A stretch of DNA of 64,000 bases. It comes from Flectonema sp. DT1601 (taxonomy: Eukaryota). A program made the position numbers and the translations under genes. Location: NCBI GenBank assembly GCA_964019425.1, contig OZ025792.1:1116001-1180000 (forward strand), in the 5' to 3' direction. The notes below the pieces were generated by a model that saw nothing but the letters and a program-made list of their open reading frames with translations, did not search any database and had not been told where the DNA came from. Below are positions 1 through 62,759 of the stretch, piece after piece. Each line of letters starts with the position of its first letter. The stretch's first letter is position 1.

Positions 1-3000
1 GACATTCCTGGCGGTGGTACCTCACCTGACGTTATATTCTTTAAAGGATCAATTGTATTAGAAGAATTTTCAATCATAAATGAAGACAGTAAACATAACT
101 CGGATCATCGACCTCTACTCGCTATCTTCGACACAATGGCTCACCTCTCTCAAGCAACAGTTGGAGCAAGGAAACGAACTGTCTGGGATTTCAAATCTAC
201 AAACTGGAGTGCTTTCAGACAGCAACTTGATAGAAGAATTGATAGGGCTAAGTTCTCGGATGATGCCACTGGTAATGTTGGATTATTAAATAACATAATA
301 CATGAAGTAGCTGCGAGGAACGTGCGGAGGAGAATCTTATTTAAGGGCAAGCGCCGACGTAAGTGGAAGACCTCTTCACCTGAATCTATAAAATCAAAAG
401 GTAGTCACCTGAAAGACCAACTGAGGAAGGGGAACAACTTTAACTTCGCCTTCAAGAAGATTAAAGAACTCCAACAGGACGCTGGTAAGGACATCAGCGT
501 ATCAAATATATCTGAGAACGATTTACCTGCAGCATTTCTGGACCTCTTTGTGGCCGATGGGGATGCTGCTAAACTCGAAGCCCCTTCATTGAAGAAAGAA
601 GACTTGGAATTGGACATCTGTTGTGACTTCACAGATACCGAGATATCAGCAGCAATTAAAAACCTGAAGCCTCGCAAAGCAGCAGGCCCTGACGGTATTC
701 ACAACGAAATGCTTAAGAACTTATCTCAGAAGGCAGTTGACTGTTTATTAAAGGTGATCAATTCTTCGTGGAGATCCTCCAATGTTCCATATCTTTGGAA
801 ACAGGGGTTAATCAAACCGATGTTCAAGTCGGGCAAACCGCGGAACGATATTAAAAGCTACAGACCAATCACACTCACTTCGGTTGTTGGCAAACTGGCT
901 GAGAGGTTGGTGTACGACAGGCTCATGCATTGGCTTACCGAAAACTCAGCACTCAGTCCGATTCAAGCTGGCTTCAGACGGGGCAGAAATACCTGCGAAC
1001 AAATCACAATTCTGGTGGACGCCATGGTAAACAACCACACGAAGGGGAGGAGGTCAGTCTTCTTGTCATTCGATTTCACAGCAGCCTTCGATAGGATTAA
1101 CCATCGAATTTTACTTTCAAAACTACAAAGAATGGGCATCCCAACCTTCATCGTTCGATGGATAACGGACTTTCTAACCAATAGGAAGGTCAGAGTTGAT
1201 GCAAATGGACATTTCAGTAAGTTTCGTACGCTGTCAAAAGGAGTGCCTCAAGGATCAATCTTAGGCCCACTACTCTATTTAATATATGTTGACGATCTGT
1301 GTAAGATTCTCTCACAAGAGAAGGAAACGACTTTGACCGCACTGTATGCAGACGACACCGCTTGTGCAGTATTTGGCTCGACCATGGACGAAGCAATCTC
1401 AAACGCTCAACGAATACTTGACATCGTTGACAAGTGGTGCCGTGATAATGACATGGCACTTTCAGTCTCCAAGACTTGCGCTCTGAAAATGGATATTCAA
1501 TCGAAAGAAGTAACCCTGACTGATACTAGCGACCGCGAACTCTTATTCTCAAAATCACTGGAAGTACGTTCGTTAGATATTGACTATTTTGATCTAGACA
1601 GCGTGATCAACACGACGACGACAAGGCCCACTTTACTGAGTGGTGAAACGATCCTCGAAGTAGAGGGGAAACCCATCAGGACTCAACAAGAATTAGAAGA
1701 TTTACTGATGTTGAACATCCACGACGAGATGAATGTCAAAGCGAAAATTAAAATTGCCTTCCTACTGCCGATCACGGACTCAGTGAAATATCTGGGTGTT
1801 TACATTGATAACAGGCTCAGGTTTGATAAACAGTTAGAGAAAATACACGACGAACTGAAGAAAGGGATCTCCCTTCTGCAGTGCCTCCAGCCATATGAAT
1901 TGGACTACAAGACCCTAAAGATGGTTAAAAACTTGTACGTGACAGCGAGGATTTCCTATGCACTGGACAGCTTTGGTTGGTTGCTCAACCAGCATAAAAC
2001 GGATGCTATCGACTTCGAGATGAGAAAAATAGCGAGACTCGTAACAGGATGCAGCAGATGTACTCCGAGGGAGTTGCTCCTTTGGGAAGCCGACATCTTA
2101 CCGTTTAAAAGACAAATCGAAAAGCAGACTAAAATTGCCTATTTCAGGTACAAAGCCATGACCTGGGTGCCGGACACCAACTCACTCGCATCGCCTCGAA
2201 GCTTCTGGGGTGGCCTCATTCCCCGTTCTGAAGGTCAACTAGAAAGTGTGGGGATCGTTCAACCTGACTCTATCAAACCTTGGATTGCTTCGGACAATGT
2301 TCAAATCAGCAACAGCTGCGGTTTTACAAAATCCCCTGATCCCGCAGTGGACAGGGAGAAATTCCTTACCTACAACGCGACACTTCCTCCGGTGGACATG
2401 GTGATCAACTGTGACGGTTCATACTCTTCGAATGCGTCAGGCGCGGCTCTCATTGCTAGGTCACGAGACGGAAAGAAACGTGCTCATGCGACCAGATTAG
2501 TGCGTGCGGATTGCAGCTACAGAACTGAGCAACATGCCTTGAAAAATGCGGCAAACTACTTAAACTGGAAGGTACAGAAAGACGGGCTAACTAAGTCAGT
2601 CAGAATCTATACCGACTCAAAATCATTGTTGGACGAGTTGAAGGGTGGCAGGTGTAAACAGAGAAACACCAGATCCCTCGGCATCCTCGAGAACCTACGG
2701 AACTGCGGTATGAAAGTACATCTTCAATTCATCCCTTCTCATATGGGGATAGAAGCACACGACGAAGTTGATGAACTTGCTAAGAAATCGGCTCACAACA
2801 GATACCTCCCTCAAATCCCAATCCGAGGATCCTTCTTCTATCACAAATCCCGAGTGAGGAGGGGGATCACGAAGGACATTTGGAACAGAATTGGTTACAC
2901 TTGCTATAAAAACACCGTCAAAGGTGCCGCGATAAAATATCCTCCCGACATGAAAAGGAGCGATGAAATCAGAATTGCGAATTTTAGAACGGGGTGTCAT

Positions 3001-3856: not shown

Positions 3857-4479
3857 TTTTTTTTTTTTTTTTTTTTTTCCTTCCCAGTGACCAACAGGTA
3901 CACTGTCTGCACTGGCCGTTCGGTCAGGAACGCCGCCGCTGACGTCGTGCGTCGTATCCGTACTGCTGATTCGTTCTGTCACGTTCGGACACTCGTCGCT
4001 CTGAGACATTGCTTAGTGCAGGTTGCTGACTAACAACATCGTTTGAAAGTCTTACACCAGAACCTCATTGGTACCTTACAAAGACCCTGCATCAAATTCA
4101 CACGCGGGTCGTTCTTCAAGGTCAATAGTGTAAACTTCCACTCGACTTAGGACCTCGCTTGGAAGCTTCTGTCATCGCGCAATTCTTCCTTAAGTTAAGT
4201 TAAACTTAACTTTAACATAAGAGAGTAATCCATCGTCCTGTTAACCTCTATTCTCTCATCATGGTGTAGAAGTAAGTTAGTCAACTATTGATGTAGTTAC
4301 TTAATTGTAATGTTCATAAAAAAACATTCTTATTGTTGTAATCTTTTGGACGCAAGCCCTAACACGATCAAAAAGTAACCACCAGTGGTGACTAAGTGAT
4401 CCAGTCTGGCTTACTTCAAAGGCTAACATAGTCAAGCACAGTCACTGCGGATGTGTTGTGTAGCATCACGGCTCCGATC

Positions 4480-4699
4480 GGAGAACCGTAGATACCAGGG
4501 ACTAGAAACGGGAGTTCCTCTCGTACTACCCCGTATTGTGGTCGACTTACACTGCCAAGGGGTCTCTCCCCATCAGTAGGTAAAACTTGTCTCACGACGG
4601 TCCTGTTAGTGGGTGAACTATCCAACCCTTGGACAATTCTGCTTGTCTAGGCTAGGAAGAGCCGACATTGAAGGATCAAAAGCAATGAACGCTTGGCTG
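4480..4699 (-). pseudogene. LSU (28S) rRNA fragment: peptidyl-transferase region plus sarcin-ricin loop, with internal deletions
   Basis: Minus strand reads CAATGTCGGCTCTTCCTAG...GGATAGTTCACCCACTAACAGG...ACCGTCGTGAGACAAG...CTACTGATG and AGTACGAGAGGAAC (4514-4527). Conserved segments are deleted. Left boundary approximate. Confidence 0.9.
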
Positions 4700-5050: not shown

Positions 5051-6893
5051 TTTGAAAAAGATTTCGCCCAGAATAGAGGGCTGTCGATTTGGAAAAAAGG
5101 TCAAAAAAGCTACACAAGGCCGTGACCGTAGTATACGTTTCTCCAAACCTGGGGGTGGATCTGTAGGTTTTCCCTTCTTATTTTTCTTAATGTATTATAA
5201 ATTATAATAATTATGTTAATTTATAATTAAAATAAAGAAAAAAACTCATTCAAGGCAGAGATAAGGAATCGCTGAACCCAGACAACAAAATCTTGGTAAT
5301 CTACAAGATAATATAAAAGTTAAAATAACAAAAAAAAGAGTTCAAAACACTAAAAAAAAAAAAAAAAAAGCAAGCACTCGGTTTTTTCAATTATTTCTTT
5401 CTTGTATGAGGTATTTTCAATTTAGTACCCCGTATGTACGCAGATCTGGGTTACCTCCACACATGAGGTGCTAATAGCTCATTGTGACTGCAACGGGACA
5501 TTTATTTCTCTACAACTAAATTGCTTAAACTCTACAAGTCGATTATTAAAATAAATAAGAATTCGTACACCCGTTATCTGGTTACTAATAACTTGCATGA
5601 TTTGTTCCTATTTTATTGTTGCCAAAATGACTAACTCCAACACTGAAGTTGTAAATTCAATTTAAAAAAAAAAAAAAAGCACTCTGAAAAGGGAGAGGAA
5701 AAACTGATGATCCGTAAGGTTGACTCGTGCAATCCTGTCTCAACAGTTATGTATAAGAAAAGAGAGAAGAACCGTTAGTTAGTAATGATAATTATCAATC
5801 AAAAAAATCAAATGCAAAAACTCATAGGACAACAAACACACAAACGGTTTTGGCAAGTCCATCAGACCACCGAGTATCGGTTAAACGCTCAAATAGAACC
5901 TGGTAGCTCTTCGAGGGTCTCCAATACTGCAGTAGAAGGCTGAACCTTATCCTAAGAACATTGTTTTATTAGTTCGGCACAGGGCATACATGAATTTAAA
6001 TATAAACATGGTTGAAACACAAAAAACAAGGAATGAAGATGCACAAATTGAAAATAATACTGCCCACAGCAATACCCGAGAAACTTAATAAATAAATCAC
6101 TACAGAGCGGGTGAATGCTTCCCTCCGTGAACGAAACGAATTAAAGAAGCGATAAACCGTACTGCGAGGCGTTTATTCCATCAAGGGATTAACGAAAAGA
6201 AAAGAAAGAAGAAATAAAGACAAACGTTTGTATCAATTTGAATACAACGCGAAATCATTAGTAAGTAAGCTAGCGGGTTCAACAAGCCACCGAGTACCAG
6301 TTATGTCCCCAAAGAGAATCAGGTAGCTCTTCAAGAATTCCTAATACTACGGTAGCAGATTGTGAACCTAATCCCAAGAGGATTATATTGTTAGTCTCCA
6401 CACGAGGCATACTAAATCAAGATATCTGTAACCTCAATACTTCAACGTATCACTAGCAAGAAAGAATATTGAAAAACATGAAATAAATAAATAAGGAAAC
6501 TAGGAGATGAGATGTTACCGAGGGTGGGGCTGGGGGTGATAATATGACACTAACTAAAATGGCCAAGACGACCATTTGAACGACCAGCATAAAACAACTG
6601 AAGAATTGATAAAACAGAAATCAATAAAAAGAGAAAACGAGAACTCCACCGCAAAGTGTCAACTAAACAGAAACCTATAACAAAATGAACCTGTACTCTT
6701 GACCACTACCATGCGACAAACACCAAAAGGGAGAGCTGGAAACCAGATTAGCGTAAGAAATATAGAACTGAAAATTTCTGCGCAAGAATAAAAATTTATA
6801 AAAAAAACTTAGGCAATAACAGCCTCAGGGTTCCAATACTTTATTACGTTTATTCATATTTGAGAGTTGATACAACAAGAAGAACAACAGTAA

Positions 6894-11483: not shown

Positions 11484-11675
11484 GTTAGTATTAATAATTA
11501 TCAGTCAATCAAAAAAAAAAAAAAAGCAAAATCTCGTAGGACAACAAACAAGTTGGTTTCGAGCTAAGATTAAAAACAATCTTTCTTCGGACCATGCCCC
11601 TTACCCAGCCCTCTTCAGCGAAGAAAGCAAGGGGGACACTGCGGTGTCAGGCTTGCCCTACTCATCGCGTTTGCC
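11484..11675 (-). mobile_element. Short retroposed insertion flanked by a 16-bp direct repeat
   Basis: TATACAACGCAACAAA at 11468-11483 and 11676-11691; the insert begins with the GTTAG tail motif shared by many spacer elements. Confidence 0.6.
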
Positions 11676-11706: not shown

Positions 11707-11905
11707 TTAGTTAGCAAAATACAAACTGATGACTACGAGGGGTCTGAGTAGCCCGCATCAGTAAGGACCCAATCGCGAAGATTGTAGTTTCATAGTATTG
11801 GCTGGAAGTGATCGACTTCCAGCCTCCACCTTGCCCAGAGGCTAACAGGTTGTAAACAACTAAAGAAAATAAAAGAGAAATGATCTGGGAGTGGGGGGAA
11901 GGTGA
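11707..11905 (-). repeat. Structured repeat family A, retroelement 3'-end-like with CTAA tail (other copies ~18623, 24295, 34384, 46114, 62514; diverged relatives ~31850, 41200, 52650)
   Basis: Near-identical GCAAAATACAAACTGATGACTACGAGGGGTCTG...GGCTAACAGGTTG blocks, mostly preceded on + by TTAGTTAG or a T run. Confidence 0.8.
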
Positions 11906-13463: not shown

Positions 13464-13584
13464 TGGGGGGAGAGAGCTCTCTGCGGGCGGCCGCTTAGAG
13501 CGTTTCGAATCCCAGCAATATTTCTCAGCTAGAGGAAGCAAAAGTCGTAACAAGGTTGCTGTAGGTGAACCTGCAGCAGGATCA
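13464..13584 (+). pseudogene. Retroposed 3' end of SSU (18S) rRNA with 6-bp TSD
   Basis: TAGAGGAAGCAAAAGTCGTAACAAGGTTGCTGTAGGTGAACCTGCAGCAGGATCA, flanked by ACAAGA at 13458-13463 and 13585-13590; empty paralogous site at 20616-20621. Confidence 0.95.
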
Positions 13585-26904: not shown

Positions 26905-27420
26905 GACTTCTCCAACAATGATACAATCTAATGAGGGACACGATGAAGTATGACATTCGCGCATTAGCTTTGTTTAAAATGAATGCAGCGGCTTTTTTTG
27001 GGTAATCAAGACACTTTTGCTCAACAGTTAGAAAAAAGATACTACTTGTCCTTCTTAGGCCTTCATCAGTAAGTTCTGAGGGACTTCATTTCAGTTTATT
27101 AATAAATCAGATTTATCAAAATGTCTATTTCAAAAGAAATGATTTCTCAAAGTCCATCGGAGCTCGCCAAGATGGGCTAGCATATATTTGTTTTTTGATC
27201 AGCTGAGTTCGATCTCTTCTACTGCGGCTTGTTTTATAATAACGAGTGCGAGTTCTCCTTCATCGGAGCTGTAGTCGTCTTTCTTACGCTTTTCCCAAGT
27301 CTCGGTGAGGAGTAAAATTCCTTCGCTCAAAAGTGTCATTGTACAATTAGCAAACAGTGATGACTTTTGTTCACTGGTGTCAGCAACTACATTCTGATGT
27401 TCTTCTTGGGATCCTCCTAG
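26905..27420 (-). mobile_element. Rearranged fragments of the Josephin-carrying Penelope-like family
   Basis: 26905-27010 translates to DYPKKAAAFILNKANARMSYFIVSLIRLYHCW. 27040-27345 matches the ORF end (KRKKDDYSSDEGELALV) and 3' UTR of 53330-53620. Confidence 0.75.
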
Positions 27421-40366: not shown

Positions 40367-41639
40367 ACTGTGTGGGTGGCTGTGAGTGAAGAACATGTAA
40401 AACATAATACTCAAATAACTTCGTCAATCAATTCTACTCTGATGAGGGGCATCTTGTCAATTGAAACTTCTGCATAATTGTGATAACTGATGCAAAGATG
40501 AGAATAAGAGTAAAATAATTTCATTACCTTGTCTTCAACAGAGTTAGAAAGATTGGATGTAGACTCCCAATAACCACTACTGGGAATCAGTTGCGTGGTA
40601 CAAATGAATAATATTAAGAATGAAATATGTTATTCTCGTTGTTGAAGGTGATCTTTCAAATTAGAAAATTCTTTTTTCTTCATAATCACGTGAGAAAATT
40701 GCCGCCATACAATAGAAAATTAAAAACTCGTAACAGGGCGCCGTTCGCTCCCAATTGTCCCAAGCATTAATATCGTAAAGTGCTTCAAAAACATTAATTC
40801 AAAAAAAGAAGTTAGTTAGCTACAATATGAGTTTGTATCATTAATTTTAGAACAGAAAAGTGAGAATAAGAAAAGTAGAGATTAGTAAAAGAAAAGTATT
40901 CATTTCTGCAGTTTCCTAACATCAAAGGGTAATAGAATATGTAGTTTCAGGAGCCTTAATCTTATACTACTTGTCCCTTTTTAGGCCTTTATCAGTAAGT
41001 TCTAAGGGACTTCATTCTATGTTGAAATTGCTATCGTTCTAAGATAAAAATCCATCGGAGCTCGCCAGAAAAGAAGTAAGTTAGCTACAATATGAGTTTG
41101 TTATGAATAATAGTTAATTCATTAAATTTAGTTTAGAAAGGAAAAGCTTGGAAAAATACATTGTTCTGCTGTTTTATTTAACACGGAAGCCTATAGAACG
41201 GTGGGTCCAGATTAACCCTCACCAGTAGAGGATCCAATCAGAGATTGTGTTTTTATAGCTTCAGCTCGGTTGTCAAACCATTCCCAGATACTAACAGGTT
41301 GAAAACAAAAAGAATGATCAGAAAGGTTGAAATGTTTGTTATATTTATGAACAAATAAATATCTGTATCGTACCAGAGTTGACTAAATATTTTTTTTACG
41401 ACCATATGTGACATATGGCGTAGTACACTACTATCGGAGAAACACCTTAAATTGTTATCTATAATTCAGTTAGAAAACTTGTGATATTTTGGTAATATAG
41501 AAACAGTAATAAACTTTAAAACACTCAAAAGATACGTGATAAGGTTAAACTAAGACGTATGACAGAAGCTTTATCTTCATTTCAGAATAGTAACCAAAAT
41601 GATTGATAATAGATTACTTTCTCGTACATAACAAAACTA

Positions 41640-52084: not shown

Positions 52085-53194
52085 ACTGTGTGGGTGGCTG
52101 TGAGTGAAGAACATGTAAAACATAATACTCAAATAACTTCGTCAATCAATTCTACTCTGATGAGGGGCATCTTGTCAATTGAAACTTCTGCATAATTGTG
52201 ATAACTGATGCAAAGATGAGAATAAGAGTAAAATAATTTCATTACCTTGTCTTCAACAGAGTTAGAAAGATTGGGTGTAGACTCCCAATAACCACTACTG
52301 GGAATCAGTTGCGTGGTACAAATGAATAATATTAAGAATGAAATATGTTATTCTCGTTGTTGAAGGTGATCTTTCAAATTAGAAAATTCTTTTTTCTTCA
52401 TAATCACGTGAGAAAATTGCCGCCATACCATAGAAAATTAAAAACTCGTAACAGGGCGCCGTTCGCTCCCAATTGTCCCAAGCATTAATATCGTAAAGTG
52501 CTTCAAAAACATTAATTCAAAAAAAGAAGTAAGTTAGCTACAATATGAGTTTGTTATGAATAATAGTTAATTCATTAAATTTAGTTTAGAAAGGAAAAGC
52601 TTGGAAAAATACATTGTTCTGCTGTTTTATTTAACACGGAAGCCTATAGAACGGTGGGTCTAGATTAACCCTCACCAGTAGAGGATCCAATCAGAGATTG
52701 TGTTTTTATAGCTTCAGCTCGGTTGTCAAACCATTCCCAGATACTAACAGGTTGAAAACAAAAAGAATGATCAGAAAGGTTTGTCAAGTTAGTTAGTATC
52801 ATTAATTTTAGAACAGAAAAGTGAGAATAAGAAAAGTAGAGATTAGTAAAAGAAAAGTATTCATTTCTGCAGTTTCCTAACATCAAAGGGTAATAGAATA
52901 TGTAGTTTCAGGAGCCTTAATCTTATACTACTTGTCCATTTTTAGGCCTTTATCAGTAAGTTCTAAGGGACTTCATTCTATGTTGAAGTTGCTATCATTC
53001 AATTTGGTTGTCAAGTTAGTATTAATAATTATCAGTCAATCAAAAAAAAGGGAAAATTTCGTAGGACAACAGTCCTACGAATTCGGTTGTCAAGTTAGTA
53101 TTAATGGTTATCAGTCAAAAGAAGGGGAGAGGGTGGGAAAATTCAATCGAATGCAAAAGTTCGTAGACAACAGTCCCACGAATTCGGTTGTCAA

Positions 53195-54340
53195 GTTAGT
53201 TAGAATATGAGTTTGTTATAAAAAAGTGCACTAAAATAAAATATAAAAAAGAAAAGTTATAAAAACACATTGTTCTGCTGTTCCATAATACACTGTGGAA
53301 TACGTAGTTTCAGGCCTTAATCTTATACTACTTGTCCCTCTTAGGCCTTCATCAGTAAGTTCTAGGGACTTCATTCCAGTTAAATAATAAATCGGATCCA
53401 TCAATTGGTCTATTTCAAAAGAACTGATTTCTTAATGTCCATCGGAGCTCGCCAGGACGGGCTAGCATATATTTGCTTTTGATCAGCGTTCTATCTCTTC
53501 TACATCTGTTCGTTTTATTACGAGTGCGAGTTCTCCTTCATCGGAGCTGTAGTCGTCTTTCTTGCGCTTTTCCTTAGTGTTGGTGAGGAGTAGAATTCCT
53601 TCATTCGAGGGTGCCATGGTACAGTCGTTATCATTATTATTATCCTGCAGAGTTTTTCTTAAAATCATGTGAAAACAATATTCTGGGCGTTTAAAATGTC
53701 TGTCAAAATGGTCGAATGATAATCGTCGGTCTGTCGCTCCTTTGAGAATGTCTCTAACAATAATGGAATCAAAGGAGACAAGGGCCACCATGTAGTGTGA
53801 CATTCTAGCACCAGCTTTGTTTAAAATGAATGCGGCGGCTATTGTTGGGTAGTCCATAGAACTGGGATCTACATATTGGTGGATTTCCCTGTTGAGTTTA
53901 TGTTTACTTGCTACCCCCAGAACGGTTAAAGAGAACCAGCCATCCGGGGATGGTTTTTGCTCGTTGCTGCCAGGTTCTACTTTTTGATGTTCTTCGTAGA
54001 ATGTTTGTTGTAGTTCTTGCAAATAGCTGAAATTAATTCGGTCAAGATAAAGATGGTCTGCAACAAAATTCAGCGATGCCCATCCACACTCACCTCCGAT
54101 TAGACCTTCCCCTGAAGATTGATGTGATTGTATTGGGAATCGTTTGTCTAAGGTGTGAAGTGTGAAACTTTTATGATTAATGGTGTCTTTTTCGTCGCGT
54201 TAAACTTTTCGGAAGTAATATTTAGTCGTCTTCGAATTGCAGCTGCAACATTGCCATCGTCAATATATAAGTTGATAAAGCTGTGACAAGCTACTGCGAG
54301 GTTCTTAAACTTGTATCCTCGGTTGAGTAGTCTGTATGTT
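53195..54340 (-). mobile_element. 5'-truncated Penelope-like retroelement: RT-thumb-like end, Josephin-like protease domain, 3' UTR with hammerhead, CTAA tail
   Basis: YRLLNRGYKFKNL (54336-54298); frameshift near 54200; then Q...ECGWASLN...DGWFSLTVL...FILN...SHY...FDS; stop at 53483; tail CTAACTAAC ending at 53195. Confidence 0.6.
53304..53369 (-). ncRNA. Putative hammerhead ribozyme, non-circularly permuted (degenerate copies 40941-41010, 52902-52971, 62049-62118; partial 27041-27084)
   Basis: GUCCCU AGAA CUUA CUGAUGA AGGCCU AAG AGGGAC AA GUAGUA^UAAG AUUA AGGCCU GAAA CUAC. All core nucleotides are present. Stems I (CUUA/UAAG), II (AGGCCU/AGGCCU) and III (ACUAC/GUAGU) are fully Watson-Crick. 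Confidence 0.65.
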
Positions 54341-61494: not shown

Positions 61495-62759
61495 ACTGTG
61501 TGGGTGGCTGTGAGTGAAGAACATGTAAAACATAATACTCAAATAACTTCGTCAATCAATTCTACTCTGATGAGGGGCATCTTGTCAATTGAAACTTCTG
61601 CATAATTGTGATAACTGATGCAAAGATGAGAATAAGAGTAAAATAATTTCATTACCTTGTCTTCAACAGAGTTAGAAAGATTGGGTGTAGACTCCCAATA
61701 ACCACTACTGGGAATCAGTTGCGTGGTACAAATGAATAATATTAAGAATGAAATATGTTATTCTCGAAGGTGAACTTTCAAATTAGAAAATTCTCTTTTT
61801 CTTCATAATCACGTGAGAAAATTGCCGCCATACCATAGAAAATTAAAAACTCGTAACAGGGCGCCGTTCACCCCCAATTGTCCCGAGCATTAATATCGTA
61901 AAGTGCTTCAAAAAAGAAGTTAGTTAGCTACAATATGAGTTTGTATCATTAATTTTAGAACAGAAAAGTGAGAATAAGAAAAGTAGAGATTAGTAAAAGA
62001 AAAGTATTCATTTCTGCAGTTTCCTAACATCAAAGGGTAATAGAATATGTAGTTTCAGGAGCCTTAATCTTATACTACTTGTCCCTTTTTAGGCCTTTAT
62101 CAGTAAGTTCTAAGGGACTTCATTCTATGTTGAAGTTGCTATCATTCAATTTGGTTGTCAAGTTCAAAAGGTTTAATAAATTTATGAACAAATAAATATC
62201 TGTATCGTACCAGAGTTGACAAAAATAAATAAAAAAAAATATTATTTACAAAGCCTAGGAGCCAAAAGCCAGGAAAGGCACACAGGGTAACATATATCGC
62301 TACCAGCAACCGTGAGATTCTCACAGACGATAAGAGACGTAGAATAACCTGGAACAAATGAGTACCTAAACCCACCGTCCACGCGAGCAGACAGTATTAG
62401 AGACGGCTGATAACGCCAATTTTCGTCAAAGAATAATAAACTATTAGTAATAATATAGTTGACTAAATGTTAGTATAGGTAAACACCCTGCATTTGACGT
62501 AGAGGACTTTACATTAGTTTAGTTAGCAAAATACAGAACTGAGGACTACGAGGGGTCTGGGCATACCGCATCAGTAAGGAACCAATCGCGAAGATTGTAG
62601 TTTTATAGCTTCGGTTGGAAGAGATTGACTCCCAGCTCCCACCTTACCCGAGGCCAACAGGTTAAAACAACTAAAGAAAATAAAGAGAAATGATCTGGGA
62701 GTGGGAGAGGGGTGACAAAAATAAAAAAATCTTTTTTATTCTATAATGTGTTTATAAGA

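Follow-up and report, generated by a model that had tools for sequence, protein, structure and literature searches.

The window analysed here is a 64,000-nt stretch of contig OZ025792.1. Near 53 kb its minus strand carries a Penelope-like element (PLE) insertion of 1136 nt, which was delimited by tblastn and by a 13-nt direct repeat on either side (54352-54340 and 53203-53191). Two features describe it:

53204..54339, minus strand: 5'-truncated Penelope-like (Naiad/Chlamys-type) insertion bearing the candidate ribozyme (tblastn of the related proteins P0003 and P0016; 13-nt direct repeat)
53483..54339, minus strand: ORF remnant with the end of the reverse transcriptase (RT) thumb region and a C-terminal papain/Josephin-like region, one frameshift near 54199 (tblastn, relatives)

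The remnant covers residues 1068-1347 of P0016 with 59-61% identity; of the ORF, just the 3' third lies in the window. P0001, whose ORF ends at 53483, had two database relatives, one of which, P0003, reaches into RT motifs. P0004, a longer relative of P0003, and the cluster member P0016 (1350 aa) have PLE RT motifs, CxC and DK motifs and a tail resembling a peptidase; no cysteines intervene in the GIY-YIG at their N terminus. The GIY-YIG of P0016 is located at 237-286; its Pfam match was below threshold (E = 0.15). The RT fragment P0004 had no significant Pfam or PDB match, and the Longin matches obtained were taken as spurious. The C-terminal region of the remnant (53483-54196, minus strand) contains a Cys motif, followed further on by Gly-Trp-Phe-Ser and His, which we take to resemble a Josephin or papain-type peptidase. 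Atlas returned peptidase leads for it with scores of 0.86-0.91, C39/C58 at 0.86-0.89, and the peptidase label is to be read as a lead only.

We compared these proteins with the Naiad and Chlamys elements as presented in the available part of Craig et al., 2021 (PMC8557442). P0016 shares with them the N-terminal GIY-YIG and the CxC, DK and PLE RT motifs. As in Chlamys, no CCHH cysteines separate its GIY from its YIG, which makes it Chlamys-type; its Josephin-like tail matches that of Chlamys-1_cBra. At the level of sequence motifs the full-length kin have the Chlamys-type layout. The carrier also shares 5' truncation and a microsatellite-like target with these elements. Unlike the hosts given in that part of the paper, the present one is neither an animal nor, by a weak lead, a green alga. 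On the minus strand of the window a TAAC-type word is present 32 times, against three times on the plus strand and a mean of 4.8 in shuffles. Because the repeats flanking the mapped inserts contain TAAC units, this word is likely the target of the elements.

Much of the window is occupied by a tandem array of seven ORFs of 877-1235 aa (6894-61551, minus strand), which code for mucin-like membrane proteins with PTAV/PTAI repeats. Their membrane region resembles DGF-1 C-terminal/TRP-like clusters, which is a hint at a protist host of euglenozoan-like affinity. These large repeated ORFs, which lack a Pfam match, were considered as carrier and rejected. Decayed rRNA fragments are present at 4455-4697 (minus strand) and 13510-13579 (plus strand), with an Rfam match to eukaryotic LSU at E = 6e-12 and a weak SSU match.

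A first-pass annotation of this DNA had placed the strands of a hammerhead ribozyme, in the order A-C-B, on the minus strand of a retroelement 3' UTR. Direct reading of the minus strand from 53385 to 53290 found every strand at the position given, and all three stems are fully paired. The predicted cut lies 157 nt downstream of the stop of the Penelope-like ORF fragment and 122 nt before the 3' end of the insert, in agreement with the proposed 3' UTR setting. From 5' to 3' on the minus strand the elements are:

53372..53378, minus strand: outer helix P0, 5' strand (MFE fold, pair counts)
53364..53369, minus strand: enclosing helix, 5' strand (sequence, fold)
53343..53359, minus strand: block C, with the stem I 5' strand, CUGAUGA and the stem II 5' strand (sequence)
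53334..53339, minus strand: enclosing helix, 3' strand (sequence, fold)
53322..53331, minus strand: block S, with the stem III 5' strand, U16.1-A17, the predicted cut 53326/53325 and the stem I 3' strand (sequence)
53304..53317, minus strand: block G, with the stem II 3' strand, GAAA and the stem III 3' strand (sequence)
53296..53302, minus strand: outer helix P0, 3' strand (fold, pair counts)

The motif itself spans 53304-53369. Stem I (53359-53356 / 53325-53322) has only 4 bp, three of which are A-U. The core CUGAUGA (53355-53349) is followed by stem II (53348-53343 / 53317-53312, 6 bp), both strands of which are the same palindrome; its pair 10.1-11.1 is A-U and not the usual G-C. Stem III (53331-53327 / 53308-53304) comprises 5 bp including A15.1-U16.1, GAAA occupies 53311-53308, H17 is A53326, and cleavage is predicted after GUA, between 53326 and 53325. 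CUGAnGA, GAAA and UH are all intact, stems I-III flank the core and the block order is C-S-G. The extra helix GUCCCU/AGGGAC, proposed earlier to enclose strand A, is present at 53369-53364 / 53339-53334; as a stem I/II interaction it links the distal ends of these two stems. Stems II and III are 11 nt apart and the two core words 37 nt. Linkers are 3 nt ahead of the enclosing helix, 2 nt into stem III and 4 nt from stem I to stem II.

Next, all six possible orders of the blocks C (CUGAnGA), S (cleavage site) and G (GAAA) were searched for in the window, with minimum stem lengths of 4/4/3 bp. Two matches were obtained and both were C-S-G: the motif above (core 53355, stems 4/6/5) and one with core 11618 (stems 9/8/4). 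The 53 kb motif was matched in this order alone; the circular orders of hammerhead types I, II and III (CGS, GSC and SCG in one copy) gave no match for it. The non-circular arrangement stands and is the one that Eckert et al., 2023 (PMC10085705) named type CSG; rare natural non-circular permutations had been mentioned in the first-pass annotation. An Rfam search over the window at E <= 1 gave no hammerhead; the Rfam models represent circular orders. Two further plus-strand repeat families contain CTGATGA together with hairpins, one near 11726, 18638, 34414 and 46144, the other near 5704, 12666, 19565, 46713 and 56931. They failed the hammerhead scans in every order.

The 11618 match, absent from the first-pass annotation, belongs to a separate insertion:

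11490..11675, minus strand: 186-nt insertion, flanked by a 22-nt direct repeat, with a second CSG hammerhead of unrelated sequence (scan, repeat mapping)

This hammerhead spans 11554-11640 on the minus strand (core 11618-11612, predicted cut 11590/11589). Its core words are intact, its stem II is not palindromic, and in spite of the unrelated sequence it can make the same four helices as the 53 kb motif; the ViennaRNA MFE has a competing hairpin across the core. The insert extends 100 nt beyond the predicted cut. Shorter 5'-truncated pieces with the same 3' end lie at 47185-47100, 53071-53013, 5838-5777 and 24274-24232; none of them begins at the cut, and their starts are 14 or more nt after it. 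A coding partner for this family was not seen in the window.

Could such motifs have arisen by chance from short words, given that the repeat DNA is AT-rich? The stems are short, and the 53 kb motif was originally picked by eye. However, the same scan of 150 dinucleotide-shuffled windows, both strands included, returned no CSG match and five matches in other orders. Two extra helices, and the fact that the layout recurs at this position in related elements, argue in the same direction, and we regard coincidence as extremely improbable.

MFE folding (ViennaRNA, which does not model pseudoknots) of 53385-53290 yielded a nested three-way scaffold of outer helix, enclosing helix and stem III. The outer helix (53378-53372 / 53302-53296, 7 bp) had escaped the first-pass annotation. 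The fold energy was not unusual (z = -1.4 versus shuffles, with pseudoknots outside the model). Among the three distinct copies of the 53 kb family 98.8% of 84 cells pair. The outer helix has one two-sided change from G-C to A-U between subfamilies, which, with three distinct rows, is not significant (169 of 500 shuffles do as well or better). Stems I-III show no covariation among these copies and the overall signal was not significant. Varied stem sequences appear across families instead, in the 11618 motif by scan and in nematode Naiads by eye.

Type CSG was named by Eckert et al. (2023) for two unique, near-identical sequences known from soil metagenome DNA only; the available text names neither host nor element for them (PMC10085705). 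Single-motif transcripts of CSG-1 and CSG-2 were cleaved in vitro where predicted, with rates of 0.004 and 0.026 per min. The authors rate the evidence for biological relevance of CSG below that for type SGC. The 53 kb motif and CSG-1/2, as described there, have in common the C-S-G order, the full core, stems I-III, the helix around block C, and linkers of 2 nt into stem III and 4 nt between stems I and II. They differ in stem I (4 bp versus 6), and the 53 kb motif departs from the published pair by the A-U at 10.1-11.1, the 3-nt link ahead of the enclosing helix and an outer fifth helix. One RNAmotif descriptor given in PMC10085705 demands a G10.1-C11.1 pair and allows no more than 10 nt from stem II to stem III; it therefore would miss the 53 kb copy with its 11 nt. 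The 2-nt link into stem III had been flagged earlier as sterically demanding. Both published CSG ribozymes have a link of this length and were cleaved, hence it is not a problem peculiar to the 53 kb copy.

We then turned to the published consensi of the carrier's clade. According to the available text of Craig et al. (2021), Naiads and most Chlamys elements are without a canonical hammerhead; some elements are marked 'HHR_core' and eight 'HHR_half_core', with core words up to 35-50 nt apart (PMC8557442). In contrast to such 'half core' words, the two core words of the 53 kb motif, 37 nt apart, form a complete permuted hammerhead. The consensi (File S5) were read through word searches, which covered 27 of 30, 60 of 62 and 23 of 23 matches for three words, plus record ends; names were taken from the FASTA header following each record, and Ppac was assigned by its position between headers. 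Read by eye in this way, all eight nematode Naiad consensi (Ppac, Parc, 1_Nbra, 2_Nbra, 3_Nbra, Hcon, Hpol and Asuum) contain a complete C-S-G hammerhead with enclosing helix in the 3' region. Also by eye, stems I, II and III measure 5-6, 4-6 and 6-12 bp, the enclosing helix about 9-16 bp; the stem sequences differ from each other and from the window motif, and stem II is not palindromic. In the Chlamys consensi no permuted hammerhead was seen among the word matches and six record ends, where line breaks hide some matches. SGC-like cores were noticed by eye in the coral, box jelly, octopus and spider Naiad consensi of the same file.

The first-pass annotation had left open whether the rearranged hammerhead is pseudoknotted or dimeric. 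If the RNA acted in trans or as a dimer, its stem II strand, being self-complementary, would pair between molecules or tandem copies and restore an ordinary junction. This fits the palindrome shared by both stem II strands at 53 kb, the presence of a second copy 400 nt downstream and the dimeric action described for minimal PLE hammerheads in the available part of PMC4209133. However, a palindromic stem II is absent from the 11618 motif, and likewise from CSG-1/2 and the nematode Naiads as far as those sources were covered, hence a dimer is not needed; CSG-1/2 were cleaved from single-motif transcripts (PMC10085705), and the neighbouring copy carries G8A. We consider dimeric action quite unlikely. 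The pseudoknotted monomer is the probable one of the two proposed forms. The canonical type I hammerheads of PLEs, as far as given in PMC4209133 and PMC11167929, likewise have their core in the PLE terminal region and an unclear role in transposition. They differ in being circular C-G-S, often minimal and dimeric, whereas the 53 kb motif is pseudoknotted with a full stem III.

Four other copies of the 53 kb family were found in the window by sequence comparison:

52794..53007, minus strand: short 3' fragment of a sister subfamily, G8A copy (motif 52978-52896), own 13-nt direct repeat
40935..41017, minus strand: G8A copy with stem II insertion, 5' junction different from that of the 52.9 kb copy
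62043..62125, minus strand: G8A copy with stem II insertion
27039..27345, minus strand: diverged copy (86% identical) with intact block C, ending at the predicted cut +1 base

As stated earlier, three further copies (cores 52956, 40995 and 62103) have CUGAUAA plus a 2-nt insertion in stem II. Thus G8A is present in three of the five window copies, which deviate from CUGAnGA in the core; the copy with core 52956 also has one broken pair in the enclosing helix. Judged from the sequence, the G8A copies are probably dead ribozymes. As one of them has its own flanking repeat, a dead ribozyme probably is no bar to insertion. The fifth copy (27345-27039, minus strand), with an intact CUGAUGA, is an addition to the first-pass annotation. 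Joined to it is a piece from the interior of a related element's ORF (27010-26930); this chimera is the only partial tandem seen in the window.

The window holds evidence both for and against processing of the element RNA by the ribozyme. A copy that ends at the cut and is joined to a related ORF piece, as at 27 kb, would be expected if the RT jumped onto a cut RNA end; this junction is one event, noticed after the fact, and is ambiguous by 1-2 bases. On the other hand, the 53 kb insert runs 122 nt past the predicted cut. Most inserted copies derive from RNA uncut at the site, and cutting is therefore probably slow or conditional. Since G8A copies were apparently inserted and inserts retain the whole ribozyme, cutting probably is not needed for insertion. 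A related finding was reported for a Poseidon element: according to the available part of PMC11167929, hammerhead mutants were without effect on insertion in vitro, the ribozyme required the protein, and no reads ended at the cut.

Such data raise the question whether the fold, though real, is mainly structural, e.g. for binding of protein or RT or for protection of the 3' end, with this copy cleaving little or only with an element protein. The short stem I, the spread of G8A copies, the retention of the full motif in inserts and the protein-assisted, dispensable Poseidon hammerhead would be compatible with this. A mere scaffold, however, would not need the catalytic core bases, yet both window families and all eight nematode Naiads (consensi as covered above) retain them, and one copy does end at the predicted cut. 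A predominantly structural role is, in our view, unlikely.

The reading we favor, and hold to be quite probable, is that the RNA is a type-CSG hammerhead in the 3' UTR of a Naiad/Chlamys-type PLE that folds as a monomer and cuts its own RNA after GUA (53326/53325). Outer helix, enclosing helix and stem III would form the nested three-way scaffold first. The two loops of the scaffold would then pair via stems I and II, building an ordinary hammerhead core, which would cut after GUA within a single molecule. By analogy with what has been proposed for type I hammerheads of other PLEs, the ribozyme may trim the element RNA from tandem or read-through transcripts; for this role we see about an even chance.

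Are permuted hammerheads also present in related elements elsewhere? Metagenome loci were collected by an RT alignment of 31 proteins, and the best 80 of 315 confirmed loci were examined. A stop follows the RT in 70 of the 80. A GIY-YIG profile built from P0016 and four relatives matched 24 of the 80 loci, in 23 upstream of the RT. The strict three-stem scan of these best 80 of 315 loci gave no match in any order, and the CSG motif was absent from all 80 also when only stems I and III were required. With stems I and III only, 17 sense-strand S-G-C cores were obtained in the 80 loci versus 0.1 in shuffles. A looser setting gave 21, one per locus; 20 of these follow the RT and the remaining one, in a contig with overlapping ends, precedes it:

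Loci with an S-G-C core (n = 21): L014, L015, L017, L018, L019, L022, L024, L025, L031, L035, L037, L039, L044, L047, L049, L051, L054, L060, L067, L070, L077

Pairing was examined by permutation in 14 of the 21, one per lineage. Results for stems I and III are circular, as these stems were used in selection. Direct pairing of the two stem II strands was unsupported (1114 of 5000 permutations), whereas each of them pairs with an upstream strand (0 of 5000 each in 14 lineages, a test not used in selection). The idea of SGC cores without a stem II was dropped on this result. A helix between the strand preceding stem I and the strand following the core was unsupported as well (2896 of 5000). Related elements, judged by their sequences, thus often have the same reverse-cyclic order in a different version with a split stem II, while many have neither of the two forms. 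Type-SGC hammerheads (HRIMA-1) and CSG are circular permutations of each other. The split-stem-II SGC motif occupies the same place in related Naiad/Chlamys elements; the 53 kb motif differs by its ordinary stem II.

In a quick RT tree of 87 rows, without named references, the window element stood apart from the animal-type loci and from those with an SGC core. The loci closest to it, L057 and L066, had no hammerhead motif. An Rfam search of 20 motif-free loci out of the 80 found no ribozyme. For the 21 motifs, the metagenome contigs yielded no usable element ends at the cut. In viral contigs a degenerate C-S-G pattern had 13 matches, none of which had the stems, and the RT alignment had no relatives there.

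The RNA belongs to the known type CSG; new would be the nuclear-genome and Naiad/Chlamys setting. An earlier link of CSG to either was not found in the open-licence PMC and bioRxiv literature, and PMC13725137, in its available part, merely cites Eckert et al. (2023). CSG thereby gains a host, a carrier and varied stems: a nuclear genome, two unrelated families and 8 of 8 published nematode Naiad consensi. The working view of hammerhead-free Naiad/Chlamys transposition, as expressed in the available text of PMC8557442, would be overturned and the 'half core' notes explained. Hammerhead function in PLEs becomes directly testable with monomeric, full-stem ribozymes, and compact natural constructs are at hand for a first structure of a pseudoknotted hammerhead. 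Taking all data jointly, a wider reading is tempting, to which we give somewhat less than an even chance. Non-circularly permuted hammerheads may be native to the Penelope clade with an N-terminal endonuclease, CSG being standard in nematode Naiads and present in at least two families of a protist-like genome, and most other motif-bearing members having split-stem-II SGC. The forms might interconvert by circular permutation via tandem repeats, the soil CSG sequences would be PLE tails, and cut RNA ends would be the template-jump points which build partial tandems such as the 27 kb chimera.

Some further features of the metagenome loci were noted. The ends of the L025 contig (1-127 and 5100-5226) overlap exactly across the motif, which fits a tandem or circular element. 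Another conserved motif of ~50 nt, apparently structured, is located just past the stop in the 3' UTRs of animal-type Naiad-like loci without a hammerhead core (L055, L056, L058, L059, L063, L068, L072, L075, L082, L084, L085 and L087); the seven of them searched had no Rfam match. L032, L034, L043 and L045 have a further structured tail in common. Lastly, L093 contains at 1987-2048 (plus strand) a SECIS element above the Rfam gathering score, past the RT-bearing ORF, as in selenoprotein Naiads.
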